A DNA stretch of 64,000 bases, from NCBI GenBank assembly GCA_041918515.1, contig JAYRVO010000064.1:23050-87049 (forward strand), read 5' to 3'. Below, piece after piece: positions 3,164-40,692 of this stretch; within the stretch, counting starts at the first letter, position 1; each line of letters begins with the position of its first letter. The position numbers and the translations under genes were made by a program. Origin of the DNA: Chloroflexota bacterium (GTDB lineage: Bacteria; Chloroflexota; Anaerolineae; J102). Below the pieces are notes generated by a model, which worked only from the letters and a program-made list of their open reading frames with translations, was not told where the DNA came from and did no database searches.

Positions 3164-3209
3164 TCTCATTTCCCGTCATCCTCACCCGCGCACTTGGTGG
3201 AGAACTTTG

Positions 3210-3732: not shown

Positions 3733-3734
3733 TC

Positions 3735-3795
3735 ATGCCTACCCTCACCCGCGCCACCACCGAAACCCAACTCGCCCTCTCGCTCGATCCATGCA
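3735..3795 (+). pseudogene. remnant duplicate of hisB 5' end
   Basis: ATG CCT ACC CTC ACC CGC GCC ACC ACC GAA.. encodes MPTLTRATTETQLALSLD, versus genuine his[20 protein letters not shown] at 4148. Followed by a stop and the MNT cassette. Confidence 0.45.
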
Positions 3796-3822
3796 TCTTC
3801 CTCAATAATTGCGAGGTGAATC

Positions 3823-4113: not shown

Positions 4114-4147
4114 AAGATGATACTGGCGCGGCAGGAGATAAAACCTG

Positions 4148-4735: not shown

Positions 4736-4736
4736 A

Positions 4737-4815
4737 CTGGTTATTGGTAATTGGTTATTGGCGATTGACCGCCAATAACCAATTACCAATAACCAATAAC
4801 CAATAACCAATAACC
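4737..4815. repeat. CCAATAA-family heptamer hairpin (inverted ggttattgg / ccaataacc arms plus a tandem ccaataa run)
   Basis: Seen directly: ggttattggtaattggttattggcgattgaccgccaataaccaattaccaataaccaataaccaataacc, between hisB and hisH. Confidence 0.85.
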
Positions 4816-4818
4816 ACC

Positions 4819-5445
4819 ATGATCACCATCCTCGACTACAACATCGGCAACGTGCGCAGCGTGCAAAAGGCTGTCGAGCGGGCTGTGGCCGACGCCGGCA
4901 GCAGTCAGGCCGTGACGCTGACGGCCGATCCGCGCGCCATCCTTGACGCCGACGGCGTGATTCTGCCGGGCGTGGGCGCGTTCGGCGCTTGCATGACCAA
5001 CTTGCAGGCCGCTCACCTTTCGTCCATCGTGCGCGAGGTCGTGGTCGAAGGCATTCCCCTGCTGGGCATCTGCGTGGGCATGCAGATGCTGTTCGAGTTC
5101 AGCGAAGAGATGGGGGAATGGCGCGGCTTGGGTTTGCTGCCAGGCCGGGTGCGGCGCTTCGAGGGCGACCTGCGCGTGCCGCAGATCGGCTGGAATCAAC
5201 TTCACCCCACTCGGCCCGATCCTCTGCTCGATGGCATCGCCGATGGCGACTACGCCTACTTCGTGCATTCCTACTACTGCGACGCTTCCAACCCCGCCGA
5301 TGTGCTGGCGACGACCGACTACGGCCTGAGTTACCCTTCCGTCATCCAGCATGGCCGCATCTGGGGCATCCAATGCCACCCGGAAAAAAGCCAGCAGGTA
5401 GGGTTGCGGATTTTGCGAAATTTTGTTCATATTGTTGATCAGTAG
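4819..5445 (+). CDS. hisH: imidazole glycerol phosphate synthase glutamine amidotransferase subunit
   Basis: GICVGMQMLF (catalytic Cys), HSYY and CHPEKS motifs of class I GATase HisH. Confidence 0.9.
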   Translation: MITILDYNIGNVRSVQKAVERAVADAGSSQAVTLTADPRAILDADGVILPGVGAFGACMTNLQAAHLSSIVREVVVEGIPLLGICVGMQMLFEFSEEMGEWRGLGLLPGRVRRFEGDLRVPQIGWNQLHPTRPDPLLDGIADGDYAYFVHSYYCDASNPADVLATTDYGLSYPSVIQHGRIWGIQCHPEKSQQVGLRILRNFVHIVDQ

Positions 5446-5535
5446 ACAAGTAAATAAGGAAACAAGTAGACAAGGAAACAAGTGGATGTGCGCCCTTGTC
5501 TACTTGTCTACTTGTTTCCTTATCTACCCAAATTA
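5446..5535. repeat. inverted-repeat hairpin (gtagacaag...cttgtctac) after hisH
   Basis: tagacaagtaaataaggaaacaagtagacaagg, then its reverse complement ccttgtctacttgtctacttgtttccttat. Likely a terminator or structured element. Confidence 0.6.
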
Positions 5536-5554
5536 CTCAAAAGAGGTTTAAATC

Positions 5555-6121
5555 ATGCTACAAACCCAAACTCTCACATCTTCTCGTTGGACCACCCGCG
5601 CGGCGCTCATCGTTGGCTTCGCCCTGTTCACCGGGCTGGCGGCGCAGGTGCGCATCCCGCTACCGTTCACGCCAGTGCCGGTCACGTTGCAAGTGCTGGC
5701 CGTGATCCTGGCCGGATTGCTGCTTGGCCCGCGCGCTGGCTTCCTCAGCCAGTTGACCTATCTCGGCTTAATCGCGCTCGGCGCGCCGCTGGCCGCGGGC
5801 TGGATCGGCGGCCCGACCGCTTTCGTCGGCCCCACAGCCGGCTACCTCATCAGCTTTCCGGTGGCGGCGGCAGTGGTAGGCTGGCTGGCCGGGGATGGAA
5901 AGGCGCGCGGGCGCAGCTTTTTGGCCGGGCTGGCGGGCGTGGCCGTTATCTACCTGGTGGGCGCGACCTGGCTGGCTTTGGTGCTCGGTCTCTCGCTGCA
6001 ACAGGCATTTCAACTTGGCGTGGCGCCGTTCATCCTGGTCGATGTGGCCAAAGCTCTGATCGCCGTGCTGGTCGGGCGTAGTGGCGCGGCCCTGTTGCAC
6101 AATCTCCAATCGCGAGCGTGA
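5555..6121 (+). CDS. bioY: BioY family biotin transporter (ECF S-component)
   Basis: VPVTLQ..AGLLLGP..GAPLAAGWIGGPTAFVGPTAGYLISFP is the BioY signature. Multi-TM protein. Confidence 0.8.
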   Translation: MLQTQTLTSSRWTTRAALIVGFALFTGLAAQVRIPLPFTPVPVTLQVLAVILAGLLLGPRAGFLSQLTYLGLIALGAPLAAGWIGGPTAFVGPTAGYLISFPVAAAVVGWLAGDGKARGRSFLAGLAGVAVIYLVGATWLALVLGLSLQQAFQLGVAPFILVDVAKALIAVLVGRSGAALLHNLQSRA

Positions 6122-6887
6122 AGACCCATTGAGCGGCGAACTCTCGGTGCTGTTGACCCAAATCGACGCCAAGCGCGGCCTGCTCGACCAACGCCGGCCC
6201 CTGAACGCGGGCGAAGCGGCGCGACTGCGCGAGTACATCGACGTAGAATGGACGTATCACACGAACAGCATCGAGGGTTCGACGCTCACCCGCCAAGAGA
6301 CGATGGTCGTGCTCAAGCATGGCGTCACGGTCGGCGGCAAAACCCTGGTCGAGCACCTGGAAGCGACGAATCACAAGCATGCCATCGACTACGTGATGCA
6401 ATTGGCGACGCGCGGCGCCCCACCCACCGAAGCCGACATCCTCACCTTGCACAGCCTGGTGTTGCGCGGCATCGACGACGAGAATGCGGGCGTTTATCGC
6501 CGCCGGCAGGCTTTCATCGCTGGTTCGGAATACACCCCGCCCCCGCCGCGGGCTGTGCCCGGACGCATGGCCGAATTCGGCCAATGGCTGGAGAGGACGC
6601 ACACAGCCGAACCTCGTCTGCATCCGGTCGAACGAGCCGCCCACGCTCATTTCTGGCTGATGGATATCCATCCCTTCATCGATGGCAATGGCCGCGTGGC
6701 GCGCTTGTTGATGAACCTGCTGCTCTTGCAAAGCGGCTATCCCATCGCCATCATCCGCAGCGAAGACCGCCTGGCCTACTATGCCGCTCTCGATGCCGGC
6801 CACGCCGGCCATCTGGATGACTTCCTACTGCTCGTGGCCGCCGCCGTCGATCGCACAGCCGACCTCCACCTCTCCGCCACCGATTGA
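6081..6887 (+). CDS. Fic family protein (AMPylation/Fido domain)
   Basis: HPFIDGNGRVARLLMNLLL is the canonical Fic motif. The true start is probably an internal TTG/GTG near 6129-6147, because the ATG at 6081 overlaps bioY by 41 nt. Confidence 0.75.
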   Translation: MARPCCTISNREREDPLSGELSVLLTQIDAKRGLLDQRRPLNAGEAARLREYIDVEWTYHTNSIEGSTLTRQETMVVLKHGVTVGGKTLVEHLEATNHKHAIDYVMQLATRGAPPTEADILTLHSLVLRGIDDENAGVYRRRQAFIAGSEYTPPPPRAVPGRMAEFGQWLERTHTAEPRLHPVERAAHAHFWLMDIHPFIDGNGRVARLLMNLLLLQSGYPIAIIRSEDRLAYYAALDAGHAGHLDDFLLLVAAAVDRTADLHLSATD

Positions 6888-8660: not shown

Positions 8661-8750
8661 GTTGGTTATTAGTTATTGGTTATTAGTTATTGACGTTTTC
8701 TACCAATAACCAATAACCAATAACTAATCTCCAATAACCAATCCCCAATC
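8661..8750. repeat. CCAATAA-family heptamer hairpin between GNAT and hisF
   Basis: ggttggttattagttattggttattagttattgacgttttctaccaataaccaataaccaataactaatctccaataacc. Confidence 0.85.
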
Positions 8751-8754
8751 TCCC

Positions 8755-12585: not shown

Positions 12586-14127
<1,542 letters not shown>

Positions 14128-14177
14128 ATTCGGCAACCACGAAGACACGAAGAAACAAAAACACGAAGACAGTAAAG

Positions 14178-14570
14178 ATGGCTCATCTCCCCATTTCTGA
14201 ACAGGAAGAGCATATCGCCAGGCATATTGTGGACGCGGCGTTTACGGTTCACCGCACGCTTGGGCCTGGTCTGCTGGAGAGCGTGTATGAAGTTTGTTTC
14301 TGCCACGAGCTTGCTAAACGAGGCCTGTCACACCAACGACAGGTTGTCGTACCGATTCTTTACGATGGCCTCTGCATCGATGATGGCCTGCGGCTCGATG
14401 TTCTTGTCGAAGAGTTGGTCATTTGCGAATTGAAAGCCGTGGAAGTGGTTCATCCTGTATTTACGGCGCAATTGCTGACCTATCTGAAACTGACCGAAAA
14501 ACGGCTGGGATTTCTCATCAACTTCAATGTGCCCTTGATCAAGCAGGGTATCCAACGCTTTGTTCTTTGA
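14178..14570 (+). CDS. GxxExxY protein (PD-(D/E)xK nuclease-like fold family)
   Basis: 131 aa. GPGLLESVYEVCFCHEL is the GxxExxY motif. Conserved ..GFLINFN C-terminus. Confidence 0.65.
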   Translation: MAHLPISEQEEHIARHIVDAAFTVHRTLGPGLLESVYEVCFCHELAKRGLSHQRQVVVPILYDGLCIDDGLRLDVLVEELVICELKAVEVVHPVFTAQLLTYLKLTEKRLGFLINFNVPLIKQGIQRFVL

Positions 14571-14940
14571 ACTTTGTGCCTTTGTGTCTTCGTGGTGAAT
14601 ATAACCACCTCCACTTTCACACCAGCCATGCTCTTCCGCTCCTTGTTCTTTGACCTTCGTGCCTTTGTGTCTTCGTGGTGAATATAACCACCTCCACTTT
14701 CACGCCAGCTATGCGCTTCCGCTCCTTGTTCTTTGACCTTCGTGCCTTTGTGTCTTCGTGGTGAATATAACCACCTCCACTTTCACGCCAGCTATGCGCT
14801 TCTGCTCCTTGTTCTTTGACCTTCGTGCCTTTGTGTCTTCGTGGTGAATATAACCACCTCCACTTTCACACCAGCTATGCGCTTCCGCTCCTTGTTCTTT
14901 GACCTTCGTGCCTTTGTGTCTTCGTGGTGGATGGAGTTTT
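14561..14940. repeat. 83-bp tandem repeat, about 4.6 copies
   Basis: The motif tgttctttga recurs at 14561, 14644, 14727, 14810 and 14893 (period 83). Unit: ..gtgcctttgtgtcttcgtggtgaatataaccacctccactttcac(g/a)ccagc(c/t)atgcgcttc(c/t)gctccttgttctttgacc. An imperfect inverted copy (cacgaagacacgaag) lies at 14130-14170. Confidence 0.9.
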
Positions 14941-17900: not shown

Positions 17901-18490
17901 CAACCGGATCACCATCCCCTGCCGGCCTGCCCATTCTGCTGTTCACGAACCCGCAAGAATGGGCCGATTGGCTCGACCGCTATCACGCCGATGCTGCTGG
18001 CGTGTGGCTACGCCTGGCGAAGAAGGCATCCAGCCTGACGTCCGTGACTTACGACGAGGCGGTGGAGGTGGGGCTGTGTTATGGCTGGATCGATGGCCAG
18101 AGCAAGCGCTATGACGCCGATTCATGGCTACAGAAGTTCACGCCGCGTTCGTCCAAGAGCATTTGGTCGAAAGTGAACACGCAAAAGGCGCAGAGACTGA
18201 TCGCAGAGGCCCGGATGAAACCGGCGGGGCTGCGGGAGGTGGAGCGCGCCAAGCAAGATGGACGTTGGGCAGCGGCGTATGACCCCCAGAGCACGGCTGT
18301 CGTTCCCGAAGATTTGCAGGTCGAACTCGACGACAATCCGGAGGCGAAGGCATTCTTCCAGACTCTCGACAGCCGCAATCGTTACGCCATCCTGTTCCGC
18401 ATCCAGACCGCCAACAAGCCCGAGACCCGCGTAAAGCGAATTCAGCAATTTATGGCCATGCTGGCGAAAGGGGAGAAGTTGTATCCATGA
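17897..18490 (+). CDS. YdeI/OmpD-associated family protein
   Basis: GVWLRLAKK..YDEAVEVGLCYGWIDGQSKRYDADSWLQKFTPRSSKSIWSKVN pattern. Overlaps the purL stop. Confidence 0.65.
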   Translation: MTTGSPSPAGLPILLFTNPQEWADWLDRYHADAAGVWLRLAKKASSLTSVTYDEAVEVGLCYGWIDGQSKRYDADSWLQKFTPRSSKSIWSKVNTQKAQRLIAEARMKPAGLREVERAKQDGRWAAAYDPQSTAVVPEDLQVELDDNPEAKAFFQTLDSRNRYAILFRIQTANKPETRVKRIQQFMAMLAKGEKLYP

Positions 18491-18555
18491 TACCCATCGC
18501 CATCCTCCACGCCCCCGGCACGAACCGGGACACCGACGCCGCTATCGCTTGTTAG
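18487..18555 (+). pseudogene. remnant duplicate of purQ 5' end
   Basis: ATGATACCCATCGCCATCCTCCACGCCCCCGGCACGAACCGGGACACCGACGCCGCTATCGCT is near-identical to the genuine purQ start at 19318 (MIPIAILHAPGTNRDTDAAIA vs MPPPPIAILHAPGTNRDTDAAIA). Terminated by TAG, then the TA cassette. Confidence 0.55.
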
Positions 18556-18981
18556 TTAGCCAGTCTTCCAAGCTTCGCTTAGGAAGCCACGTGGGGTGAC
18601 AATAGCAACGCCACGGAATGGATTGAGCCGAAGCAAATCACTATCTCCACTCACAATGCACTTTGCATTCCCACTGACCGCAAGCTCGATAAACTTATCG
18701 TCGCTAGGGTGACGGCAAGCTCGGATACGTTCGGCCGCTTCGATGAGTTTGGTTTCCCGCAGTAGCACAGCCAGGAATTCAAGTCGTTCCTCTTCACTTA
18801 CATACCTGGCAAAACCAGGACGCCCCAGCACTTCATTCAGCTCAGAGAGAGTCTCCACAGAAACGAGCAGATCACCATCGGCGATTGCTTTATCGAAAGC
18901 TTGACGTGGCAGCGAATGCTTCAATAAAGCTGCACCAACAACCGCATTCGTATCGAACACGAAACGTGGTCTAACGCTCAC
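18556..18981 (-). CDS. PIN domain toxin (type II TA system)
   Basis: RFVFDTNAVV..(acidic residues)..CIVSGDSDLL layout of PIN nucleases. 141 aa. Confidence 0.7.
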   Translation of the reverse strand: MSVRPRFVFDTNAVVGAALLKHSLPRQAFDKAIADGDLLVSVETLSELNEVLGRPGFARYVSEEERLEFLAVLLRETKLIEAAERIRACRHPSDDKFIELAVSGNAKCIVSGDSDLLRLNPFRGVAIVTPRGFLSEAWKTG

Positions 18982-19198
18982 GTAGCAACTCTTCGAGTTT
19001 TTCTTCAGTCAATCCACGTTCCATTGCTTTGTCACTCATTTCATCCATGATGTTGGCTAAAGAACTAGAACGAGTCGCGTATTCACGTAGCCAAAGATTC
19101 ATCAGCATCTGTAGTTTTGATTTGGTCTCTTTCGATGCCGAACGATAGGCTTGTGCTAATTCGGAATCGACTTGCAGTGTGACAGTGGCAAGCGCCAT
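18971..19198 (-). CDS. antitoxin (cognate to PIN toxin), start uncertain (19198-19246)
   Basis: Small ORF overlapping the PIN start by 11 nt (MALATVTLQVDSELAQAY...EEKLEELLRER). Confidence 0.5.
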   Translation of the reverse strand: MALATVTLQVDSELAQAYRSASKETKSKLQMLMNLWLREYATRSSSLANIMDEMSDKAMERGLTEEKLEELLRER

Positions 19199-19317
19199 TT
19201 CGTTTCGCTCCTGTAATCCATTTGAGGAACTCATCATGCTGTTCACATTATAGCACCCTCATCCTGGTCTCCTCAATTCCTCGCCCCTTCGCCCCCTCAA
19301 CTCCCTCGCCTCACCCC

Positions 19318-20136
19318 ATGCCCCCACCTCCCATCGCCATCCTCCACGCCCCCGGCACCAACCGGGATACCGACGCCGCCATCGCTTTCGAGCTGGCTGG
19401 CGGCAGCCCTGAAATCGTCCACGTCAACCAACTTCTCGCTGGCGAACGCCGCCTCGCTGACTACGCCCTGCTCGTCGTTCCCGGCGGCTTCTCGTATGGC
19501 GACGACCTGGGCGCGGGCAAACTGTGGGCCGTGCGCCTGCTGCACGATCTCGGCGAGCAGCTTCGTGCTTTTGCGGATGCGGGCAAACCCATCCTCGGCA
19601 TCTGCAACGGATTCCAGGTGCTGGTGAAGACGGGGCTGCTGCCGGGAGCAGGGGACGAAGGTGGCAAGTGGCAGGCGGCAATCTCCAATAACCAATCTCC
19701 AATAACCAATCTCCAACTCGCCACCCTCACCCGCAACGAATCCGCGCATTTCGAATGCCGATGGGTGTGGCTAGAGCCGAATGTTGCCAATCGTTCACCC
19801 TGGTTGGCCGGACTCGACCGCATCCATTGCCCGGTAGCGCATGGCGAAGGCAACTTCATGACCCGCGACGCCGCTGCACTCGATGCCATCCTGTCGCAAA
19901 ACCTCGTTGCCTTCAGCTATGTCGATGCCGATGGCCGCCCCGGCCCCTATCCGATCAACCCCAACGGCTCGGCCGCCGACATCGCCGGCGTGACGAACGC
20001 CAGCGGCAACATCCTCGGCCTGATGCCACATCCCGAAGACCATATCTTTCCCTGGCAGCACCCGGCGTTCCATCGCGGCACGGCCGGCTGTTCCGGTCTG
20101 AAACTTTTCCAGAATGGCGTCTCCATGACAAAGTGA
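19318..20136 (+). CDS. purQ: phosphoribosylformylglycinamidine synthase subunit PurQ (glutamine amidotransferase)
   Basis: IAILHAPGTNRD, GGFSYGDD, GICNGFQVL (Cys) and HPE motifs. Contains an in-frame ccaataacc/ccaatctcc insert ([17 protein letters not shown]). Confidence 0.85.
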   Translation: MPPPPIAILHAPGTNRDTDAAIAFELAGGSPEIVHVNQLLAGERRLADYALLVVPGGFSYGDDLGAGKLWAVRLLHDLGEQLRAFADAGKPILGICNGFQVLVKTGLLPGAGDEGGKWQAAISNNQSPITNLQLATLTRNESAHFECRWVWLEPNVANRSPWLAGLDRIHCPVAHGEGNFMTRDAAALDAILSQNLVAFSYVDADGRPGPYPINPNGSAADIAGVTNASGNILGLMPHPEDHIFPWQHPAFHRGTAGCSGLKLFQNGVSMTK

Positions 20137-20212
20137 CTGGGTGACAAGGTGACAAGGTGATCGCAGCGACATCACCTTGTCACCTTGTCACCTTGTCACC
20201 TTGCCACCGTAT
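20137..20212. repeat. GGTGACAA-family octamer hairpin
   Basis: gtgacaaggtgacaaggtgatcgcagcgacatcaccttgtcaccttgtcaccttgtcacc, a perfect inverted arrangement. Confidence 0.85.
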
Positions 20213-20236: not shown

Positions 20237-21508
20237 ATGACTGTCACCGCAATCGTCGGCGCCCAATGGGGCGATGAAGGCAAAGGCCGCATCATCGACA
20301 ACCTGGCCCAGCAGGCCGATGTCGTCATCCGCTTTCAGGGCGGCGACAACGCCGGCCACACCGTCATCAACCAGTTCGGCAAACACGCCCTCCATCTCGT
20401 CCCCAGCGGCATCTTCAACCCCGCCACCCAAAACATCATCGGCACGGGCTGCGTCGTCAACCCGCAATCGCTGTTGGCCGAGCTGGAAGGTCTGACCGCC
20501 GCTGGGGTCAACCTCGATAACCTGTGGATCAGCTCCCGCGCTCAAATGCTGCTGCCCTATCATCGCACGCTGGATGTGCTGGAAGAAGGTGCGCGGGGCA
20601 AAGACACCATCGGCACCACCAAGCGCGGCATCGGCCCGGCCTATGCCGATAAATCCGCTCGCGCGGGCTTGCGCATGGGCGACTTGCTCCAACCCGATTG
20701 GCTGGAATCCCGGCTGGATAGCGCACTCGGCAGCGTCAACCGCAAGCTGCAAATCCTGGGCGGCGAACTTATCGACGGCTCGGAATTGTACGCGTTGTGC
20801 CTGGAGTTCAGAGAAAAGCTGGGGCGACGGATCATCGACACCGTCCCCATGATCCGCCGTTCGCTCGAAATCGGCGCCGACATCTTGCTGGAAGGCCAGC
20901 TCGGCGTCATGCGCGACCTCGATTGGGGCATCTACCCCTATGTGACCAGCAGCAACCCCACTGCCGCCTATGCCGCCAGCGGGGCCGGACTGCCCGCCCG
21001 CTGCATCGACCGCGTCATCGGCGTCGTCAAAGCCTACAGTACGGCTGTGGGCGACGGCCCCTTCCCCACCGAACTGCACGACGCCGACGGCCAGAAACTG
21101 CGCGAGATCGGCCAGGAGTTCGGGGCCACCACCGGCCGGCCCCGGCGCTGCGGCTGGTTCGACGGCGTGGCCATTGGTTATGCCGCCTGGCTTAACGGCA
21201 TGACTGGCCTGGCCATCACCAAGCTGGATGTGCTCGACGCCTTCGAGACGATCAAAATCTGCACGGGCTACCGCCTGCCTTCGGGCGAGATCATCACCGA
21301 TTCCATGCCCGCCACCCCCACGCTCTACCAAGTCACGCCGGTGTACGAAGCCTGGGACGGCTGGCTGACCTCGACCGCCGACTGCCGCCGTTGGGACGAT
21401 CTGCCCAAGCAGGCGCGGGCCTACATCCACCGCCTGAGCGAATTGGCCGGGATCAAGGTCGATTATGTGTCCGTCGGGCCGGAGCGGGAGCAGATGTTTG
21501 CGGTTTGA
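20237..21508 (+). CDS. purA: adenylosuccinate synthetase
   Basis: [21 protein letters not shown] and [10 protein letters not shown] motifs with GTP-binding elements. Confidence 0.92.
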
Positions 21509-21568
21509 CCCACCGCCTGCGACGGGATAGAATGCGAGTAATCGGAATTTCGGAAATCAGGAGGAGCT

Positions 21569-21847
21569 ATGGCCACTGACACGATTCAGATGCGCGCCAA
21601 GGGCAGCATCACCATTCCAATTGAATATCGAAAGAAATATGCGCTCGAGGAAGGTGATGTGTTTACACTCGTAGATCTCGGAGATGGAAGCTTCGTAATC
21701 GTGCCGCGCGTATCATTACTGCCGAAACTAGTGGCTGAACTCGAAGCCATTCGCGAGGAAGCCGGCGTCACGGTCGAGGATCTATTGGCTGATGTTCCCA
21801 AATACCGCCAACAGATCTACGAGGAACGCTATCGTGGGCGGTTCTGA
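21569..21847 (+). CDS. AbrB/MazE/SpoVT-type antitoxin
   Basis: IQMRAKGSITIPIEYRKKYALEEGDVFTL swapped-hairpin pattern. AGGAGG ribosome-binding site. Confidence 0.6.
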   Translation: MATDTIQMRAKGSITIPIEYRKKYALEEGDVFTLVDLGDGSFVIVPRVSLLPKLVAELEAIREEAGVTVEDLLADVPKYRQQIYEERYRGRF

Positions 21848-22295
21848 AACGAACGCGCCGCGTATCTTCTTTGACACTTCTGTCGTGTTGGCCTGCGCGT
21901 TTTCAAAGAGGGGTGCCAGCTATGTTCTAATCGAGCTGGCAAACCTCACGCTGATCGAAGGGCGTATTTCGCCTGACGTGCGTGAGGAGGTGTTGCGCAA
22001 TGCTCCTTCGAAGATGCCTGCGGCTATGCCTGCCTTGCGCTCGATCCTTTCCGAATATCTGATCGAAGGTCCGGCGCCATCGGCTGAAATGCTGATCACG
22101 ATGCGCGGCTATGCTGACGTCAAAGATGTCCCCATCCTGGCGGCAGCGATCGAGCAGAGGTGTCGGTACCTGGTGACGCTGAACGAGCGCGATTTTTGGC
22201 CGCCCTCAACTTTGATCACAATTGTGCGCCCGGGCGATCTGCTCTCGGCTATTCGGAAGCAGGTTGGTACGTTGATCATGGGAAATGATTTGTAG
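21834..22295 (+). CDS. PIN domain toxin
   Basis: GTG start overlapping the antitoxin stop. [19 protein letters not shown] acidic residues. Confidence 0.6.
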
Positions 22296-22302
22296 GTTTG
22301 CC

Positions 22303-22388
22303 CTACCTTCACCGCCTGAGCGAACTGGCTGGGATCAAAGTCGATTATGTGTCCGTAGGGCCGGAGCGGGAGCAGATGTTTGCGGTTT
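22303..22388 (+). repeat. copy of purA 3' end (..[24 protein letters not shown]-stop)
   Basis: About 90% identical to 21421-21508 at nucleotide level, including the stop codon. Confidence 0.85.
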
Positions 22389-22496
22389 GACGCCCCGCCT
22401 CTGGCCGCATCCCTGTTTGATTGGATATCGACGGGGTGGCATAATAGGGGCCAGAATTTATTCCTAATTCGAGGGCCAGCTCAGGAGGCCATGCTC

Positions 22497-22730
22497 ATGG
22501 AACGGGTTAAGGTCAGTCTAACGCCCCCGCTAAACGAATTTCTTAGCCGCCACGCATTCTACGGCTTCTCGGATAAGAGCGCGATGGCCCGCGCCGCTTT
22601 GTCTCGCCTGAAAGAAGAGATTGAGTTGCAGCTTCTGCAGCAATCCGCCGATCTGTATGCTGAGGAGTATGAAGATGATCGGGAATTGCAGGAATTGACG
22701 AAAGCGGCGCTGGCAGGATGGCCAGAATGA
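22497..22730 (+). CDS. RHH/CopG-like antitoxin (MazE-type partner)
   Basis: MERVKVSLTPPLNEFL... AGGAGG 8 nt upstream. ATGA overlap with mazF. Confidence 0.5.
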   Translation: MERVKVSLTPPLNEFLSRHAFYGFSDKSAMARAALSRLKEEIELQLLQQSADLYAEEYEDDRELQELTKAALAGWPE

Positions 22731-23083
22731 GCGCCCTGCGACGGGGGATGGTGGTCGAGGTCGATCTCGATCCGACGCTTGGTTCGGAGACAGGGAAGAC
22801 GCGGCCATGCGTGATCGTGACGAACGATGTCTACAACGAACGCGTGCCTGTGATTCAGGTTGTTCCGATCACGGCCTGGAGCGAGAACAAGGGCCGGATC
22901 AGGACGAACGTCGAGCTATTCCCCAGTTCTGATAACGGCTTGACGAAACGGTCGGTGGCCGATTGTCTGCAAACTCGTCCGGTCGATCATCGCTTGCGAT
23001 TGGTCGCCATTCTGGGTGAGCTAACAAAAACAGAAATGGGGCAGATCGATGAGGCACTAAAAGTCATATTTGCGCTAAAATGA
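22727..23083 (+). CDS. mazF: MazF/PemK family endoribonuclease toxin
   Basis: [30 protein letters not shown] is the MazF/PemK signature. Confidence 0.75.
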
Positions 23084-23215
23084 GCGAGCTGGCCGGAATC
23101 AAGGTCGATTACGTGTCGGTGGGGCCGGAGCGAGAGCAGATGTTTGCGGTATGACCGACCACTCCACCTACCTCTCCCCCTTCACCTGGCGCTATGGCTC
23201 CGACGCCAGTCGCTT
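23084..23215 (+). repeat. copy of purA 3' end fused (ATGA) to a purB-like 5' start ([19 protein letters not shown])
   Basis: gagcgagctggccggaatcaaggtcgattacgtgtcggtggggccggagcgagagcagatgtttgcggtatgaccgaccactccacctacctctcccccttcacctggcgctatggctccgac. Confidence 0.8.
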
Positions 23216-23252
23216 TTTCTCTTCGATTTGCCGCCCGCCATTTGTCGTACTA

Positions 23253-23275
23253 TGCTTTCTCGTACTTACACTATA
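23253..23275. promoter_or_regulatory. palindromic operator-like site upstream of the phd/doc-like pair
   Basis: tcgtacttacactataagtacga (9-bp inverted repeat) with an extra gtcgtacta half-site upstream. Typical of TA autoregulation. Confidence 0.35.
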
Positions 23276-23308
23276 AGTACGAGTACCCCAACAGGACGAG
23301 ATCAAATC

Positions 23309-23551
23309 ATGGTGCGCAAAATCTTCCGAACCGGCAACAGCATGGTCATCGCCCTGCCCAAAGAAATGCTCGATCCCCTTCGTCTGGGCGAAGGCGCCGA
23401 GGTGGATGTGCAGTTCGACCGCGCCCGCGGGGTGATCACCGTCTCGCCAGCGCCGGTGATGGTCAAAGGCGTGGATGAGGATTTCGCCCGGCAGGTCAGC
23501 GAGTTCATCGACCAATACCGTCCTGCCCTGGAAGCTCTGGCGCGGGCATGA
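23309..23551 (+). CDS. AbrB-type Phd-like antitoxin
   Basis: MVRKIFRTGNSMVIALPKEML. ATGA overlap with doc. Confidence 0.55.
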   Translation: MVRKIFRTGNSMVIALPKEMLDPLRLGEGAEVDVQFDRARGVITVSPAPVMVKGVDEDFARQVSEFIDQYRPALEALARA

Positions 23552-23931
23552 TCTATCTCTCGGTCGAGCAAGTACTGTTCGTCCACATGCGCTTGATCAG
23601 CGAGATTGGCGGTAGCCCTGGCATCCGTGATCTGGCGCTGCTGGCATCGGCAGTGGCTCGACCGCAGGCTATTTTTGGCGGCCAGTACCTCTATCCCGAC
23701 CTGGCCAGCAAGGCGGCGGTGCTCATGGATTCGCTGATGCGCAACCACCCTTTTATCGATGGCAATAAGCGAGTGGGAATCACGGCCGCCAGCTTGTTCC
23801 GGCAATTGAATGGCTACAGATTGACCGCATCCTCTGCCGAAGTCGAACTCTTCACCCTCCAGGTTGCCCGCTCGGAACTGACGCAAGTGCAGATCGCCGC
23901 CTGGTTTCGCTCTCACGGCGCCGCAAATTGA
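23548..23931 (+). CDS. doc: Doc (death-on-curing) toxin, Fic/Doc family
   Basis: HPFIDGNKRVGITAASLF Fic/Doc motif. 127 aa. Confidence 0.8.
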   Translation: MIYLSVEQVLFVHMRLISEIGGSPGIRDLALLASAVARPQAIFGGQYLYPDLASKAAVLMDSLMRNHPFIDGNKRVGITAASLFRQLNGYRLTASSAEVELFTLQVARSELTQVQIAAWFRSHGAAN

Positions 23932-23990
23932 CCGACCACACCACCTATCTTTTCCCTTTCACCCAGCATTGCGGCTCCGATGACATGCCT
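23929..23990 (+). repeat. degenerate copy of purB-like 5' start
   Basis: tgaccgaccacaccacctatcttttccctttcacccagcattgcggctccgatgacatg. Confidence 0.6.
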
Positions 23991-24016
23991 CGGGGCCAGG
24001 CTGCCTCGCCCCGTTT

Positions 24017-24025
24017 GTGGTATCA
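24017..24025 (+). promoter_or_regulatory. extended -10 promoter candidate (TGGTATCAT)
   Basis: TGnTATCAT upstream of the MNT/HEPN pair. Confidence 0.3.
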
Positions 24026-24074
24026 TGGCTCGTAACATACGATTGAGCGCGACCTGTTCTGTGATCGTGAAACT

Positions 24075-24431
24075 ATGTCGCAAACGAACGCCACAGGAAC
24101 ACACCCTGTTCGCTACACTCCCTCTCCAACCGTCGAAACGCTACGCGAGGCAGCGCCCAGCTTTTGGGCGGATTTGACTCGCGCACACATGATATTGCAG
24201 GAGGCGGGGTGTACTGATATCTACGTCTTTGGGTCGCTGGTTAGCGGGCGGGCGCGTTCGGATTCAGATATCGATTTAGCGGTGCGGGGTTGCCCTAAAG
24301 GTAAGTTCTTCCATTTGCTTGGACAGCTCATGTTCCAGTTGGAGCATCCTGTGGATTTAGTCGATCTTGATGGGAATCACTCGTTTGCCGAATTCCTGGA
24401 GAGAGAAGGGGGCCTGGTGCGAATTGAATGA
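24075..24431 (+). CDS. MNT nucleotidyltransferase antitoxin (Pol-beta superfamily)
   Basis: YVFGSLVSGRARSDSDIDLAV NTase motif. Confidence 0.7.
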   Translation: MSQTNATGTHPVRYTPSPTVETLREAAPSFWADLTRAHMILQEAGCTDIYVFGSLVSGRARSDSDIDLAVRGCPKGKFFHLLGQLMFQLEHPVDLVDLDGNHSFAEFLEREGGLVRIE

Positions 24432-24894
24432 GAAATTTGTATCTCAGATTCGTTTTGAAGTTGGGGAAATCGAACACCTGATCGTCGCCTATGCAGAGTT
24501 GCTGGCGACATCTGTCAGCACGATGCCAGATCAGGTGCACCTTGCTGCTTTGGCGGCAGTCTTGCATTCGTTTTATTCTGGCGTGGAGCGGATTTTTCTG
24601 ACCATCGCCAATTCGATTGATGGCATGACGCCTACAGGACAGCAGTGGCATCGTGATTTGCTCGCACAAATGACCATTGCCACTCGACATCGTCAGTCGG
24701 TTTTGTCAACTGGAGCAGCGGCGCACTTACGCGACTACTTGGCATTTCGTCACTTCTTCCGACATACGTACTCGTTCTATCTGGATTGGGATGAGATGGC
24801 AGAACTTGTGCGAATGCTACCAGCGGTTTGGGCAGAGACGAAAGGGGACATCGAACACTTTCTCACAACGATTGATCTACCACACAGGCCGTGA
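24425..24894 (+). CDS. HEPN domain toxin (HepT-like), probable TTG start overlapping MNT stop
   Basis: Adjacent and overlapping an MNT gene. Alpha-helical ~155 aa protein with an R(x)4-6H-like region (RHRQSV..RHFFRHT). Confidence 0.55.
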
Positions 24895-24940
24895 GAGTGG
24901 ACCACACCACCTACCTCTCCCCCTTCACCTGGCGCTACCA
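24893..24940 (+). repeat. short copy of purB-like 5' start
   Basis: gtggaccacaccacctacctctcccccttcacctggcgcta. Confidence 0.6.
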
Positions 24941-25018
24941 CGTCTTTGCGATGCCCAATTTCTTGCGACTTGCCCTCTAAAACTTGGTGTGCTAACCTGC
25001 ATTTCAGGAGACTCAACT

Positions 25019-25312
25019 ATGATCAACCAGGTGACACTCACTTCGCCGCGGCAGCGCCCACTCAAACCACTCATCGAAGCGGCGTTGAACAGCGAGATGC
25101 GACTTCTGCAAACCGCCATCCAACGCACCGAACGACATCTGCAGGAATTCGAGGTCGCTTATGGCATGACGAGTGACGAATTTGTGCGGCGTTTTGAAAA
25201 CGATGACTTGCCAGAAACGCTCGACTTCGTCGACTGGATCGGCGAGTATCGGCTCTTGAACCGGTTGAGCGATAAAGCAGATGCCTTCATGGAGATCAAG
25301 TTTGCTCATTGA
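25019..25312 (+). CDS. hypothetical protein (first gene of unassigned two-gene cassette)
   Basis: 98 aa. AGGAG ribosome-binding site 8 nt upstream. Overlaps the next ORF. Confidence 0.4.
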   Translation: MINQVTLTSPRQRPLKPLIEAALNSEMRLLQTAIQRTERHLQEFEVAYGMTSDEFVRRFENDDLPETLDFVDWIGEYRLLNRLSDKADAFMEIKFAH

Positions 25313-25691
25313 CGTCTACTTTCGCCAGATCGCCGAGCTAATCGAAAATTGTGCGATCGTGCAGTCAGCGAATGTCGCCTACGACAAACGGGGCAGGTAT
25401 GAGGGATATATACGCGGGGAAATCTATTTTGTCGATGGCTCAGTTCTCCATCTTCGTGAATTCATCGATGTGGAATCCGAGGTGGAGCGCCTTACCTATG
25501 CCTACCAATACATGAACGCCAACCAGGCATTGATATTTCGCTATGACAACACGGGGCACCATCGGAGACTTCTGTTGCCCACCCATCCCCATCACAAGCA
25601 TGTTGGTGGCGAGACCACCGTGATTGCCTCGTCCGCGCCTCATCTCGCCGAAGTGCTCGATGAAATCCTGATGTCAATGACCTGGACCTGA
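25281..25691 (+). CDS. hypothetical protein (second gene of unassigned cassette, putative TA-like)
   Basis: About 130 aa. Overlaps the upstream gene. No motif I can assign. Confidence 0.35.
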
Positions 25692-25957
25692 TGACCGACC
25701 ACACCACCTACCTCTCCCCCTTCACCTGGCGCTGCGGCTCCGACGACATGCGCCAGATTTTCTCCGAAATCCATCGCCGCAAGCTGTGGCGGCGGATTTG
25801 GGTGGCGCTCTCGCCCAGACCCTGCAAGATTTGGGGGTCGATTGGGAAGAAATCCGCCGGGCGCGGGCCTACATCCACCGCCTGAGCAAACTGGCCGGGA
25901 TCAAAGTCGATTACGTGTCCGTCGGGCCAGAGCGGGAGCAGATGTTTGCGGTTTGAG
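25691..25957 (+). pseudogene. chimeric fragment: purB-like 5' end (~50 codons, frameshifted) joined to purA 3' end
   Basis: [38 protein letters not shown], then (after a 1-nt shift) [49 protein letters not shown]-stop. The N-terminus resembles E. coli PurB (SP.DGRYG...IFSE...VEVRWL). Confidence 0.55.
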
Positions 25958-26014: not shown

Positions 26015-27151
26015 GTGGATATTTCCCCTTACGGCGTCCCTCAAAACCGTCGCCATCGCGTGCTGGCGGCCATCCGGCACGAAGAAACCGACTACACACC
26101 CTACAACTTTCACTCCATCCCCATGGTCTACCACGCCATCCGGGATTACTACGGCCTGCGGGATAGCGAGGAAGTGGCGGATTTCATCGGCAACCACGTC
26201 GTCAAGATTGGCACCGACTTCAACTACAACCCCTGGGCCAGCGAGATCAAACAGCTCGACCTGACCCCCAGCGGCGGCCCTGTCCACACCAATCTCGACG
26301 CCAAAGGCGAGCTGCACATGGACGAATTTGGCTGCGTGTGGGACCGGCAGTCGGGCATGCCCCACCCCGTGGCCTATCCCATCGCTGATGACCACCGCAA
26401 GCTGGAGAGCTACCAGATGCCTGACCCCCACCGTCAGGGTCGTTTCGACCAGGCCCAAGCCCTGGCCGACCGCTGGCGCGACAAAGCCTTCATCTTTGGC
26501 AAGCTGGGCATGGTGATGTTCGAACGCGCCTGGAGCATTCGCAGCATGCCGCAACTGATGATGGACATGAAAAAACGCCCGGAATTCGTCCACGAGCTGA
26601 TGGATCGCATCCTCTATGAGTGGGATTTGCCCATCATCGACCTGCAATGCGACATCGGCATCGACGGCATGTACTTCGCCGATGATTGGGGCACCTCGGC
26701 CGGCCTCATGTTCAGCCCCGACTATTGGCGCACCTTCATCAAGCCCCGGCTGGCCGTCATCTTCAATCGCTGTCACCAGAACGGCGTCTACGTCGGCCTG
26801 CACTCCGACGGCAAGATCGCCCCGCTCTTCCCCGAACTGATCGAGATTGGGCTGGACATCTTCAATCCCCTGGAGCCGGCGGCCATGGACCGGCTGGAAA
26901 TAAAGCAGCTGTACGGCGACAAACTCACCTTCTACGGCGGGCTGGATGTCGAGCACACCATGCCCTTCGGCACAGCCGAAGACGTGCGCCAGGAAACGCG
27001 CTGGCTGGTGGAGAACCTGGGCAAAGGCGGCGGCTACATCCTGCAGACCAGCCATCAGGTGCTGTGGGACACGCCGATGGCGAATATCGTCGCCTACATC
27101 GAGGAGGTGCGGGCGATGGCAGGGTTGGAGACGCCGCGGGTAAACTCGTGA
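26015..27151 (+). CDS. uroporphyrinogen decarboxylase (URO-D) family protein (methyltransferase/decarboxylase fold)
   Basis: 378 aa. URO-D-like architecture. C-terminal region (GGGYILQTSH) typical of MtaA/CmuA/URO-D family. Confidence 0.7.
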   Translation: MDISPYGVPQNRRHRVLAAIRHEETDYTPYNFHSIPMVYHAIRDYYGLRDSEEVADFIGNHVVKIGTDFNYNPWASEIKQLDLTPSGGPVHTNLDAKGELHMDEFGCVWDRQSGMPHPVAYPIADDHRKLESYQMPDPHRQGRFDQAQALADRWRDKAFIFGKLGMVMFERAWSIRSMPQLMMDMKKRPEFVHELMDRILYEWDLPIIDLQCDIGIDGMYFADDWGTSAGLMFSPDYWRTFIKPRLAVIFNRCHQNGVYVGLHSDGKIAPLFPELIEIGLDIFNPLEPAAMDRLEIKQLYGDKLTFYGGLDVEHTMPFGTAEDVRQETRWLVENLGKGGGYILQTSHQVLWDTPMANIVAYIEEVRAMAGLETPRVNS

Positions 27152-27225
27152 TGATGCTTGTAGTAACGACTTTAGTCGTTAACGATCATATGAACGACTA
27201 AAGTCGTTACTACGAACTTTCGTCT
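27150..27225. repeat. palindromic element GTAGTAACGACTTTAGTCGTTA present as an inverted pair
   Basis: gtagtaacgactttagtcgttaacg...cgactaaagtcgttactac. The same 22-mer recurs at 50710. Likely a bidirectional terminator between convergent genes. Confidence 0.7.
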
Positions 27226-34501: not shown

Positions 34502-34582
34502 GTAGAGATTAGAGATTAGAGATTGCAATCTCCAATCTCTAATCTCTAATCCCCAATAACCAATCTCCAATAACCAATAACC
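34502..34582. repeat. GAGATTA / CCAATAA heptamer hairpin
   Basis: gtagagattagagattagagattgcaatctccaatctctaatctctaatccccaataaccaatctccaataaccaataacc. Confidence 0.85.
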
Positions 34583-34585
34583 ACC

Positions 34586-39333: not shown

Positions 39334-40692
39334 TCATTCGTGCTGGCGGCCAGCGACGCGATCGACGAACACCCCTGCCAGGCCGGTGTAGGCATCGGGG
39401 TTCAGCATGGCGTCGATCTCGGCCGCTGTGAGGTGGGTGGTGACGTGCTCGTCGGCCAGAAGCAGGTCGCGCAAGGGCCGGCCTTGCTCGAAGGCCAGCA
39501 TCGAGGCTGCGTGCACGACTTCATGGGCTTGCTGGCGGCCCAGGTGCTCGCCCAGTTTCAGCATGACGGCCTCGGAGAGCGGCAGGCCCAGCAACTGATC
39601 GAGGTTGCGGCGCATGCGGTCGGGGTAGACGATGAGGCCGCTGATGGCGCGCAGGGTGTGGGCGACCGCCCCTCCCGTAAGAATGCTGGCTTCGGGGATG
39701 ACGGCCCACTCGATGTGCATCGACGACCAATCCCGCTCGTGCTCAGCCTCCATGGCTGCCAACAGTGCCGGCGTCAACCCGCGCACGAGGCGCGCCTGGG
39801 CCATGATGCCTTCGCACAGCATGGGGTTGCGCTTGTGCGGCATGGTGCTGGACCCCACCTTGCCGCGCTGATAAGGTTCTTCGACCTCAGCTACTTCTGA
39901 TTTTTGCAGCAATATGATCTCGTGGGCGATCTTGCCCATGGTGGCAGCCACCAAAGCCAGGACGGAGACGTACTCGGCCATGCGGTCGCGGGCGGGATGC
40001 CAACAGATGTCGGGGGTTCCCAAGCCCAGATCGGCCATCAGGCGTTGTTGGATGTCCAGCCCGATCTCGCCCACCGAGGCCAGCGTGCCGGAGGCCCCGG
40101 CGAATTCGCCGACGAAGAGGCGCGGGGCCATCTCTTCCATGCGGGTGATGTGCCTCTGCACCTCGGATAGCCAGATGGCGACTTTGTAGCCGAAGGTGAT
40201 GGGGGTGGCGTGTTGGCCGTGTGTGCGTCCCGGCATCAGGGTGTCGCGATGACGGCGGGCTAGATCGGTCAATGCCGTGGCCAGGGCCTGCAGGTCGCGC
40301 AGGATGATGGCGTGGGCGCGCTTCATCTGCAAGATGAGGCCGGTGTCGGCCACGTCCTGCGTGGTGGCGCCCCAATGCACCCAGCCGCCAGCATCGCCGG
40401 CGCAGCGGGCCGAGAGCTGCCAGATGAGGGGGACCAGCTCGTGAGTGGTTTGGTCGATGCCGCGTTTGAGTGCGACGAAGTCGATGTTCTCCGCCGCGAA
40501 AGCCCGCGCCTGGCGCGTGATCTCTTGCGCGGCGGCGGCGGGGATCAGGCCAACGGCAGCTTCGGCGCGGGCCAGCGCGGCTTCGAAATCGAGCCAGGAC
40601 TGCACCATGGCTTCGTCGCTGAAGGCGCGGCGCAATTCCTCGGTGCCGTACATGTCTTGAAAGAGGAGGGAATCGATGACGTGGGAGGGCAT
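39334..40692 (-). CDS. adenylosuccinate lyase / 3-carboxy-cis,cis-muconate cycloisomerase family protein (PcaB-like)
   Basis: LFQDMYGTEELRRAFSDEAMVQSWLDFEAALARAEAAVGLIP and GSSTMPHKRNP (fumarate-lyase signature). Confidence 0.75.
   Translation of the reverse strand: MPSHVIDSLLFQDMYGTEELRRAFSDEAMVQSWLDFEAALARAEAAVGLIPAAAAQEITRQARAFAAENIDFVALKRGIDQTTHELVPLIWQLSARCAGDAGGWVHWGATTQDVADTGLILQMKRAHAIILRDLQALATALTDLARRHRDTLMPGRTHGQHATPITFGYKVAIWLSEVQRHITRMEEMAPRLFVGEFAGASGTLASVGEIGLDIQQRLMADLGLGTPDICWHPARDRMAEYVSVLALVAATMGKIAHEIILLQKSEVAEVEEPYQRGKVGSSTMPHKRNPMLCEGIMAQARLVRGLTPALLAAMEAEHERDWSSMHIEWAVIPEASILTGGAVAHTLRAISGLIVYPDRMRRNLDQLLGLPLSEAVMLKLGEHLGRQQAHEVVHAASMLAFEQGRPLRDLLLADEHVTTHLTAAEIDAMLNPDAYTGLAGVFVDRVAGRQHE

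Follow-up and report, generated by a model that had tools for sequence, protein, structure and literature searches.

Toxin-antitoxin cassettes between re-iterated purA and purB gene ends in a Chloroflexota genome: a probable case of serial homology-anchored insertion

Restriction-modification (RM) gene complexes have been described to insert into genomes with a long target duplication (Furuta, Abe & Kobayashi 2010, PMC2853133; reviewed in PMC3874152), the same phenomenon being attributed in PMC2853133 to Nobusato et al. (2000, Gene 259:99). No mobility gene is linked to such insertions, which are flanked by direct repeats of variable length (>30 bp, up to ~400 bp) that are present in a single copy at the empty site (PMC2853133). 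The species concerned are mostly competent, the repeats frequently abut a neighbouring gene at its end, and a life cycle of invasion, repeat use and release has been proposed (PMC2853133, PMC3874152). Here we describe a locus in a 64-kb stretch of DNA from a Chloroflexota bacterium (contig JAYRVO010000064.1, positions 23,050 to 87,049; hereafter the window, which is the whole stretch covered by our gene, recombinase and repeat scans), in which purA is followed by five type II toxin-antitoxin (TA) pairs and by repeated fragments of the 3' end of purA and the 5' end of purB. Insertion with long target duplication of RM complexes is the closest known description of this locus.

Like the RM insertions, the locus combines small addiction modules with the absence of a mobility gene and with long, variable flanking repeats. 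Each cargo is a complete addiction module of less than 20 kb without a mobility gene, the flanking direct repeats exceed 30 bp (here 47-99 nt), and the repeated segment is present in a single copy at empty sites in relatives (purQ in L083, purA|purB in L089, and L163 in the case of cassette 1). These relatives, designated by L numbers, are mostly fragmentary metagenome contigs and were gathered by a metagenome scan with the purA C-terminus and by context look-ups for close toxin homologues. With regard to near-identity of the repeat copies, as described for RM complexes, those found here are 85-95% identical, differ synonymously and match the alleles of other lineages, and appear to fit imported DNA better than duplicated resident DNA. 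The locus is further unlike the RM insertions in that its cargo consists of type II TA pairs, its insertion events are serial and nested, and no cleavage of DNA by the cargo is needed. A literature search, which left most subscription journals outside its range and is therefore weak evidence, gave no description of this signature for TA cassettes.

The minimal mobile element concept is said to have been set out for Neisseria by Saunders and Snyder in 2002. As in such elements, different whole-gene cassettes lie here between the same two conserved genes across strains, and movement of the elements is thought to proceed by DNA uptake and homologous recombination in the flanks with no element-encoded recombinase (the concept is used in PMC3787668 and PMC1797815). 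Minimal mobile elements differ in relying on two-sided homology and a swap of cassettes, with no duplicated flank and no stacking, whereas the flank fragments are re-iterated here; the clean exchange typical of the concept is suggested only by relative L108.

Repeats were located by self-BLAST of the window, gene families were assigned with Pfam and NCBIfam profiles, and RNA families were searched with Rfam, which gave no family anywhere in the window. The features of the array are as follows:

20237-21508, plus strand: purA, adenylosuccinate synthetase (Pfam Adenylsucc_synt, 550 bits)
21412-21508, plus strand: a1, the native purA end, last 97 nt (repeat family from self-BLAST)
21505-21533, plus strand: promoter-like site of cassette 1 (consensus promoter scan)
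21509-22295, plus strand: cassette 1, MazE/AbrB antitoxin (21569-21847) and PIN_3 toxin (21834-22295), both by Pfam
22302-22400, plus strand: a2, last 89 nt of purA and ~10 nt past its stop, 91/99 identical to 21420-21518 (a1)
22401-23083, plus strand: cassette 2, antitoxin (22491-22730) and MazF/PemK toxin (22718(22727)-23083)
22417-22445, plus strand: promoter-like site of cassette 2 (consensus promoter scan)
23081-23154, plus strand: a3, last 74 nt of purA, ~89% identical to a1
23151-23226, plus strand: b1, first ~76-88 nt of purB, 54/58 identical to b4, with clear identity to 23213 and a decayed tail
23228-23931, plus strand: cassette 3, upstream region, MazE/AbrB antitoxin (23309-23551) and Doc/Fic toxin (23548-23931), by Pfam
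23928-23998, plus strand: b2, the most decayed purB-5' copy, starting with TTG, 51/60 identical to b4
23999-24894, plus strand: cassette 4, MNT-type nucleotidyltransferase antitoxin (24075-24431) and HepT (HEPN) toxin (24370-24894)
24900-24968, plus strand: b3, purB-5' copy from codon 3, 37/37 identical to b4, with clear identity to 24937
24969-25691, plus strand: cassette 5, TumA antitoxin (25019-25312) and TumE toxin (25281(25302)-25691)
25691-25859, plus strand: b4, purB remnant made of purB nt 1-119 (25691-25809) and an internal piece (25811-25859), placed by alignment to purB of L088 and L108
25860-25956, plus strand: a4, last 97 nt of purA, 92/97 identical to a1

All five pairs lie on the same strand, with both genes intact in cassettes of 0.7-0.9 kb each, and every toxin matches its profile nearly end to end. 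In each pair a small overlapping gene precedes a toxin of known family (PIN_3, PemK, Fic/Doc, HepT-like_2 and TumE), and all five are confirmed as type II TA systems as far as predicted family and gene layout can tell. The toxin of cassette 2 matches Pfam PemK_toxin over positions 1-109 of 109 and is full length compared to homologues of 117-118 aa; cassette 4 matches Pfam Polbeta/NTP_transf_2 and, over positions 1-109 of 110, HepT-like_2; and the toxin of cassette 5 was assigned to TumE by Pfam, its partner being assigned weakly to TumA (NCBIfam, 30 bits). An earlier note, made from the letters of the window, had listed five consecutive TA pairs after purA, which was borne out by Pfam and NCBIfam, and the pair that it left unassigned is the one of cassette 5; its ribbon-helix-helix label for the cassette-2 antitoxin is not supported, as no family match was found for this protein in Pfam or NCBIfam. 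The GC content at third codon positions (GC3) is 0.44-0.71 in the TA genes compared to 0.73-0.88 in the neighbouring core genes. Predicted promoters passed the consensus scan for cassettes 1 and 2, and -35/-10-like motifs lie upstream of cassettes 3-5 (for example TTGCCC at 24969, a -35-like motif of cassette 5); the promoter/terminator scan gave no convincing terminators between cassettes. The look-alike stretches upstream of cassettes 3-5 are best taken as -35/-10 promoter elements. The predicted -35 of cassette 1 (TTGACC) overlaps the purA stop codon, so that the purA end would contribute to the promoter of this cassette.

Self-alignment confirmed the repeated purA-3' and purB-5' segments on which the earlier note was built. 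The four purA-3' copies (a1-a4, three of them extra) are 88-95% identical pairwise, the last 17 nt before the stop being exactly alike in all of them; the self-search E-values of the purA-3' and purB-5' repeats are between 3e-38 and 1e-5 (64 kb), and no further copy of either was found elsewhere in the window. Copies a3 and b1 form one contiguous purA-stop/purB-start junction, GTATGACC, in which the a3 stop overlaps the b1 ATG. In the same manner the Doc/Fic stop overlaps the start of b2, and 1 nt is shared between the TumE stop and the ATG of b4. That the b copies are truly purB is shown by their alignment to the 5' ends of full-length purB in relatives, of which that of L088 scores 377 bits on TIGR00928. 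Their end points are approximate, the tails of b1-b3 being too decayed for exact placing (that of b3 runs to ~24968 in the tail alignment), and at ~70-88 nt with decayed tails they are longer than had been noted before. The purB'-'purA fusion described at the end of the array is present, as three parts and not two: purB nt 1-119, an internal purB piece at approximately nt 494-545, and the last 97 nt of purA.

The differences among the purA copies are almost only synonymous. Compared to a1, copies a2, a3 and a4 carry 17 synonymous and 2 non-synonymous differences (a2, 5 and 1; a3, 8 and 0), with proportions of synonymous (pS) and non-synonymous (pN) differences of 0.17-0.50 and 0-0.016, respectively. 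Among the copies themselves pS was 0.17-0.55 and pN 0-0.03, and 22 of the 25 changes between pairs of fragments were synonymous. For 17 out of 19, P =3e-9 if both copies are taken as unconstrained and P =6e-6 if only one is constrained. Decay in place of a resident copy would spread differences over all codon positions, which the observed pattern contradicts; because the differences are almost only synonymous, the copies derive from different functional alleles and not from decay in place. Copy a3 is 92% identical to purA of L163 as against 89% to the resident purA (a1), and the third purA copy of L163 is 94% identical to an allele of the L083 type as against 91% to L163's own purA. Over the gene, L163 purA DNA is 88.7% identical to that of the window, and the best species-level purA match is a metagenome-assembled genome (MAG) of Litorilinea, at 81%; the window itself falls within Caldilineae. 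The purA copies are, on this sequence evidence, pieces of different functional purA alleles of foreign origin that were imported with the cassettes, and their capture appears to be recent, with almost no neutral decay since.

The purB fragments show another pattern. Between b1 and b2 there are 7 synonymous and 10 non-synonymous changes, b2 having many of the latter, and such decay fits a locus at which no purB copy is functional any more; no intact purB was found downstream of the array. A purB-family gene at 39334-40692 (minus strand; Pfam Lyase_1 and ADSL_C; TIGR00928 357 bits, cut-off 326) lies 13 kb from the array and may supply adenylosuccinate lyase, making the purA-linked purB dispensable. 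This gene was also considered as the source of the b copies and rejected, its identity to the purA-linked purB type being only 30%. It scores higher, below cut-off, on the 3-carboxymuconate cycloisomerase and XcbD models, and its activity is uncertain.

The purA locus was found in different states among the relatives:

L089: purA and purB overlapping at ATGA, cassette-free
L108: purA, cassette 1, purB, without extra copies
L088: purA, cassette 1, a decayed purB-5' copy whose ATG overlaps the PIN stop, cassette 3, purB
L163: purA, cassette 2, purA-3' copy, TumA/TumE, purA-3' copy, inverted HepT/MNT, cassette-1 remnant, gene of 1011 aa, cassette 3, purB
L084 and L086: decayed cassette 1 without antitoxin and the first ~22 PIN residues, fused to cassette 3
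L095-97: purA followed by a distant MNT/HEPN pair

The content after purA differs among L089, L108, L088, L163, L095-97 and the window, with purB on the far side in the first four. Serial accretion of cassettes at the purA/purB boundary, with the fragments as its footprints, had been proposed from the window alone, and the empty, single-cassette and multi-cassette states of the relatives uphold it; L089 is the arrangement, purA directly followed by purB, that was to be looked for in related genomes. Cassette 1 lies directly after purA in L082, L083, L088 and L108, and in L163 purA is directly followed by cassette 2, which is an empty site for the insertion of cassette 1. In the three closest species-level genomes (L001, L002 and L004) purB was not found after purA.

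Some units are shared between genomes together with their joints. Positions 22302-23154 of the window (a2, cassette 2, a3) are collinear with L163 5578-6430 (76% identical), which has the same joint between the MazF stop and purA position -74 at 6355-6357. Positions 23228-23988 are collinear with L088 11004-11764 (74% identical), in which a full-length purB starts at an ATG overlapped by Doc, and the joint from the purB-5' copy to the region upstream of cassette 3 is common to the window and L088. Positions 24969-25809 are 88% identical to L172 5701-6537, in which cassette 5 and its purB-5' fragment stand beside unrelated genes and are followed by cassette 1. Because of these shared units, the cassettes can be said to travel with gene-end fragments, in an order that varies between genomes.

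Cassette 5 has an identical left edge in two contexts; that this edge is a defined element end was considered and rejected, since the start of homology reports only the inner of two breakpoints. Fragments of ISAZ013- and ISL3-family transposases lie at 586-2822 in L172, 3-5 kb upstream of the cassettes on a contig away from purA; no link with the cassettes was established. In L084 (1185-1662) and L086 (508-1221) one deletion took the antitoxin and the PIN N-terminus, the fusion partner being the antitoxin of cassette 3; a TA pair can be lost safely only if antitoxin and toxin are disabled together in this manner.

Gene-end fragments beside TA-type cargo were found at two further loci in the window:

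18487-19387: purQ locus, with purQ-5' fragment q1 (18487-18552), an inverted TA cassette and the full purQ from 19318
18556-19246, minus strand: TA cassette of the purQ locus, PIN_3 toxin (18556-18981; Pfam) and antitoxin (18971-19246)
3736-4203, plus strand: hisB locus, with hisB-5' fragment h1 (3736-3790), MNT-type gene (3823-4113) and the full hisB from 4148

Fragment q1 (65 nt) still overlaps the stop of the upstream gene at ATGA, and the corresponding stretch of purQ (19330-19387) is identical to it at 55 of 58 positions, with all 3 differences synonymous, bringing the synonymous share of purA and purQ copies to 20/22. In L083 the upstream gene and purQ are directly adjacent, which gives a clean empty site for the purQ cassette. 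Fragment h1 (55 nt) begins 2 nt after the stop of a DUF4160/DUF2442 pair and matches 4157-4203 over 47 nt (79% identical, E=2e-4); the families at this locus are Pfam NTP_transf_2 and IGPD. In all, at least 8 duplications at four different gene ends were found in the window (6 of them at the purA/purB boundary), all beside TA-type cargo.

The his operon (1065-6887) is rich in TA-type genes in general, with BrnT (1346-1642, minus strand) between hisD and hisC, DUF4160 (3147-3446), DUF2442 (3427-3733) and the MNT gene (3823-4113) between hisC and hisB, and a Fic-domain protein of 268 aa (6081-6887) before hisA.

Boundaries of cassettes and fragments were called natural where they are also met in relatives and novel where they are not. 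Natural boundaries are those between the purA stop and the cassette-1 promoter (L082, L083, L088 and L108), between a2 and cassette 2 (purA of L163 precedes the same MazEF cassette), at a3|b1 (as in the empty L089), between the Doc stop and the purB start (L088 and L163) and between the TumE stop and the purB start (L172). The novel boundaries run from the PIN stop to purA -89 (J1; the joint lies 0-6 nt upstream of a2), from the MazF stop to purA -74 (J2), from b1 to the region upstream of cassette 3 (J3), from b2 to cassette 4 (J4), from b3 to cassette 5 (J5) and from the purB remnant to purA -97 (J6). At two of them there is microhomology: the TGA of the MazF stop in J2 is the TGA in purA's cTGAgcga (3 nt), and J6 lies on GCGGGCC, common to internal purB and purA -97. 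The internal deletion of purB in b4 appears, as judged by eye, to lie at a short CGCT match. The purA end is duplicated in blocks of 74-99 nt and the purB start in blocks of ~70-88 nt, and each duplicated block (a2-a4, b1-b4, q1 and h1) reaches a gene boundary, which is where homology between donor and recipient would end. Insertion at the ATGA overlap itself, as first supposed, is not what the joints indicate; the insertion points are inside the two genes, ~74-99 nt ahead of the purA stop and ~70-88 nt past the purB start.

No integrase, transposase or other recombinase was found with Pfam and NCBIfam among the sizeable open reading frames (ORFs) of the 64 kb, which comprise his, gua and pur genes, transporters, SMC and similar, nor was a recombinase found among the genes called on the 12-kb L163 locus. 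Inverted repeats and hairpins were absent from the cassette ends and boundaries, with no attC-like hairpin and no terminal inverted repeats, and no common core or motif was found across the eight novel joints. The ORF and repeat scans of the window agree with the earlier note that no integrase or attC is visible.

TA cassettes are known to occur in chromosomal integrons (PMC13108822), and integron arrays resemble the locus in their small same-strand cassettes, repeated separating sites, stabilisation by TA pairs and an order that varies between genomes. The resemblance to an integron or genomic island that had been remarked on is formal only. There is no intI or attI in the 64 kb, no attC hairpin and no core; the 'sites' are fragments of housekeeping genes, and the cassettes have their own predicted promoter-like sites, whereas integron cassettes are mostly promoter-less and depend on Pc. 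Transposons, insertion sequences and miniature inverted-repeat elements make target duplications of less than ~15 bp, in contrast to the duplications of 47-99 nt (79-95% identity) found here without terminal inverted repeats, and integrase islands or cis-mobilisable elements are unlike the locus in that four target genes without a shared core are used here, with no recombinase in the window. Integron, transposon and integrase island as models fall short on at least one defining feature each, and where the earlier note could name no described mechanism for the structure, insertion with long target duplication fits it.

The best explanation of the locus, to which we give a probability of roughly 60%, is serial homology-anchored insertion of TA cassettes at the purA|purB boundary with long target duplication. 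Donor DNA from a related lineage would carry a cassette in its natural place next to purA-3', purB-5', purQ-5' or hisB-5', and the fragment would pair homologously with the corresponding gene end of the recipient. The far end of the cassette, having no homologous partner, would be attached to a nearby position in the same gene through an illegitimate joint at a microhomology, and the stretch between this joint and the end of homology would then be present twice. Such a process would be homology-facilitated illegitimate recombination in which the joint falls within the anchor; an equivalent route would be circularisation of the fragment and integration by a single (Campbell-type) crossover. Either route would leave a gene-end copy of 70-100 nt beyond the cassette and the gene itself intact. 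Blocks that end at a gene boundary, vary in length, keep one natural neighbour, carry different alleles and show microhomology are accounted for in this way, because both routes predict them. The exact pathway (one-sided homology or a circle) and the entry of the DNA into the cell are what we infer.

Of 60 recombinants obtained in E. coli with an assay for homology-facilitated illegitimate recombination, 56 had arisen by a single crossover of a circular molecule, and 109-950 bp of the homologous locus were duplicated in the sequenced clones (PMC3240628); transformation is also known to create duplications (merodiploidy) via alternative pairing of repeats (PMC3784515). These processes resemble the one proposed here in depending on the host, requiring no enzyme of the element and duplicating the locus. 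They were seen with laboratory marker constructs (PMC3240628, PMC3784515), whereas the events here are natural and recurrent, carry TA cargo only and involve 47-99 nt.

Once formed, the flanking copies would be portable homology, allowing host RecA alone to loop cassettes out, to return them to related genomes and to reshuffle them. Looping out and re-integration by RecA fits the shared unit of cassette 2 between two purA copies and the differing cassette orders. Ordinary DNA between direct repeats of 70-100 nt would be deleted; TA pairs would persist, since their loss kills or arrests the cell and repeat-mediated deletion would be counter-selected. The arrays would fill with TA pairs because addiction would protect them against repeat-mediated loss.

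A plausible order of events can be proposed in three steps. Cassettes 3, 4 and 5 would first have been added at the purB start; cassette 2 and then cassette 1 would have been added at the purA end, so that the newest adjoins purA; and the whole block, ending in the broken purB, would then have been placed after a purA that preceded a URO-D-like gene, giving the a1/a4 pair. The third step is the least secure, no relative having purA next to the URO-D-like gene. The gene concerned, URO-D/MtaA-like and unrelated to the array, lies after a4 at 26015-27151 (Pfam, NCBIfam).

Several points weigh against homology-anchored insertion. No circular or linear intermediate was seen, and neither natural competence nor another route of DNA entry is established for the lineage. 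The order of purA directly before the URO-D-like gene, which is assumed to be native, occurs in none of the fetched relatives. MazEF homologues were found in seven other contexts without flanking direct repeats, so the signature is no general property of MazEF cassettes. Three toxin-side joints lie 0-7 nt from the stop codon, which is tighter than random breakpoints predict; as a proposed explanation, a longer fragment would be exchanged by recombination at both of its ends, so that the site would stay unscarred. Finally, b1 and b3 may stop at the same purB position (~+86-88), a shared end point that could hint at a preferred cut site.

That end point has also been counted towards site-specific recombination in trans, according to which the gene-end copies would be att-like sites and the cassettes integrase-less passengers of a tyrosine or serine recombinase encoded elsewhere. 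Direct repeats of a gene 3' or 5' end around an insert are the classic footprint of an integrase, the 17 nt shared exactly by all purA copies before the stop could hold a core, and tandem accretion at one site is known for integrase-less passenger elements. In streptococci, integrative and conjugative elements and related cis-mobilisable elements at fda form tandem units separated by copies of a gene 3' end, some of them without integrase; these are kilobase units with one att core and a cognate integrase on a neighbour, none of which was seen here. The lack of any recombinase in the 64 kb and among the L163 genes speaks against this explanation, and the four targets (purA 3', purB 5', purQ 5' and hisB 5') without a common core would need several specific integrases. 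Repeat lengths that vary between 47 and 99 nt, microhomologies of 3-7 nt at the joints, which are typical of illegitimate recombination, and the lack of hairpins or inverted repeats at the cassette ends do not favour it either, and we regard it as unlikely.

Long target duplication in situ would require staggered breaks ~70-100 nt apart, possibly made by a toxin or host nuclease, with ligation of the cassette and filling of the gaps. It is implied by the name of the RM phenomenon, for which a link with double-strand breakage has been suggested (PMC2853133), and would agree with cassette ends that lie close up to the toxin stop and the -35 element. That there are nucleases among the toxins of the array, several of them, adds to its appeal; by family we take them to be RNases or protein modifiers and not DNA endonucleases. 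Against it speak the purA copies, which would differ at random codon positions if made in place, whereas 17/19 differences (20/22 with purQ) are synonymous, and which are closer to alleles of other lineages than to the resident gene. Each cassette also keeps a natural neighbour on one side, in an adjacency found in relatives free of duplications too, which indicates one new joint per event and not two. Duplication in situ is accordingly given a small probability, and re-duplication of the target at each insertion, as the earlier note had it, is unlikely, near-synonymous-only differences indicating imported alleles.

A tandem duplication of the interval from purA-3' to purB-5' by unequal crossing-over, for example triggered by transformation, with replacement of the cassette and trimming to stubs, is improbable to a like degree. 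It would give exactly the purB'-'purA joint of b4 and a4, transformation-induced merodiploidy is documented (PMC3784515), and deletions do occur in arrays, as in the internal purB deletion of b4 and the fused decayed cassettes of L084 and L086. Many more steps would be necessary, among them several deletions that all stop at cassette edges, and there is no second cassette 1 and no purB after a4; the alleles of different lineages in the stubs are left unexplained, and the purQ case is a clean empty site with a single cassette.

An assembly artefact, in which strain variants of a hot spot were threaded through shared flank k-mers, might be suspected as the locus varies between strains, the repeats lie exactly at expected branch points of an assembly graph and two Logan contigs break within them, and is very improbable, given that the novel joints (toxin stop to purA -89/-74; purB +70-88 to cassette promoter) need spanning reads, that contigs built independently contain J1, J3 and J4 at 100% identity, that J2 and the joint from the purB copy to cassette 3 recur at 74-76% identity in other genomes and samples (L163 and L088), and that the copies (38-99 nt, 85-95% identical) are shorter than a read and distinguishable. 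The two separately assembled Logan contigs, from run SRR26835467, correspond to window positions 21480-22387 and 23165-24929 at 100% identity, both ending within repeats; because they were built independently, the joints that they span are not peculiar to one assembly, and the array is real. These two short contigs from one run are the only Logan contigs to match the window genes; the same cassette-4 genes were called on the Logan contig L081. Exact-sequence look-ups of purA, MazF, the 64-aa purB' ORF and TumA gave no match, a protein search with the purB-5' peptide gave the window's own 64-aa ORF as its sole match, and scans of viral contigs for the purB-5' and purA-3' cores gave none. A blind search for spaced direct repeats across every locus fetched turned up a few cases, in unrelated phyla.

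It has long been an unsettled question how chromosomal TA modules move when no plasmid, phage, transposon or integron carries them. The locus keeps the footprints of at least 8 insertions in 64 kb, for which relatives give empty sites, intermediates and shared units, and what they indicate is integration anchored in homology, in which 50-100 nt of a conserved gene end are copied and the copies later reused as recombination handles. New in comparison with the RM insertions are the TA cargo, the way in which the array grew serially and nested within core biosynthetic operons, the evidence for imported alleles and the cassette-plus-fragment units shared between genomes. Homology-anchored insertion would extend the phenomenon described for RM complexes to TA systems and would explain simply why direct repeats come to enclose surviving addiction modules and not ordinary genes. 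Its signature, in which a piece of the adjacent core gene flanks a small cassette, is searchable and could serve to detect and date transfers in any genome collection. A more tentative proposal, which at present seems doubtful, is that gene-end fragments and TA addiction together form a recombinase-free cassette platform, a 'homology-based integron'. If this were true, chromosomal TA (and RM) systems would have a general, RecA-only route of spread that needs no mobile element, in Caldilineae and perhaps beyond, and cassettes could re-enter any related genome, stacking and reshuffling inside core biosynthetic operons.

Other repeats were observed in the window. A perfect 21-nt hairpin follows the URO-D/MtaA-like gene (27160-27213), and one of its arms occurs again after another gene 23 kb away (50708-50733); it may be a shared terminator or an element of the repetitive extragenic palindromic (REP) kind. 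An 83-nt unit is repeated 4.5 times at 97% identity at 14560-14929, ending 17 nt before the purL start codon (14946) and adjoining two small minus-strand ORFs of low GC3 (14112-14555) without a family match. At 60037-60175 the 8-mer CAAGGTGA occurs ~17 times, followed by 3.4 copies of a 100-nt unit at 98% identity (60210-60548), of which an extra copy lies 3.6 kb upstream (56622-56707). The spacer between purQ and purA (20126-20211) has a 36-nt inverted pair composed of arrays of the 8-mer TCACCTTG and of its complement; this 8-mer array is also present in the Litorilinea MAG, shortly after purA (L001 3300-3350), and looks like a lineage-typical intergenic repeat. A 14-nt repeat of the CCAATAA type, otherwise intergenic (4772-4816, 8702-8753 and 34526-34583), lies inside the coding region of purQ at 19679-19716, where it is read in frame.

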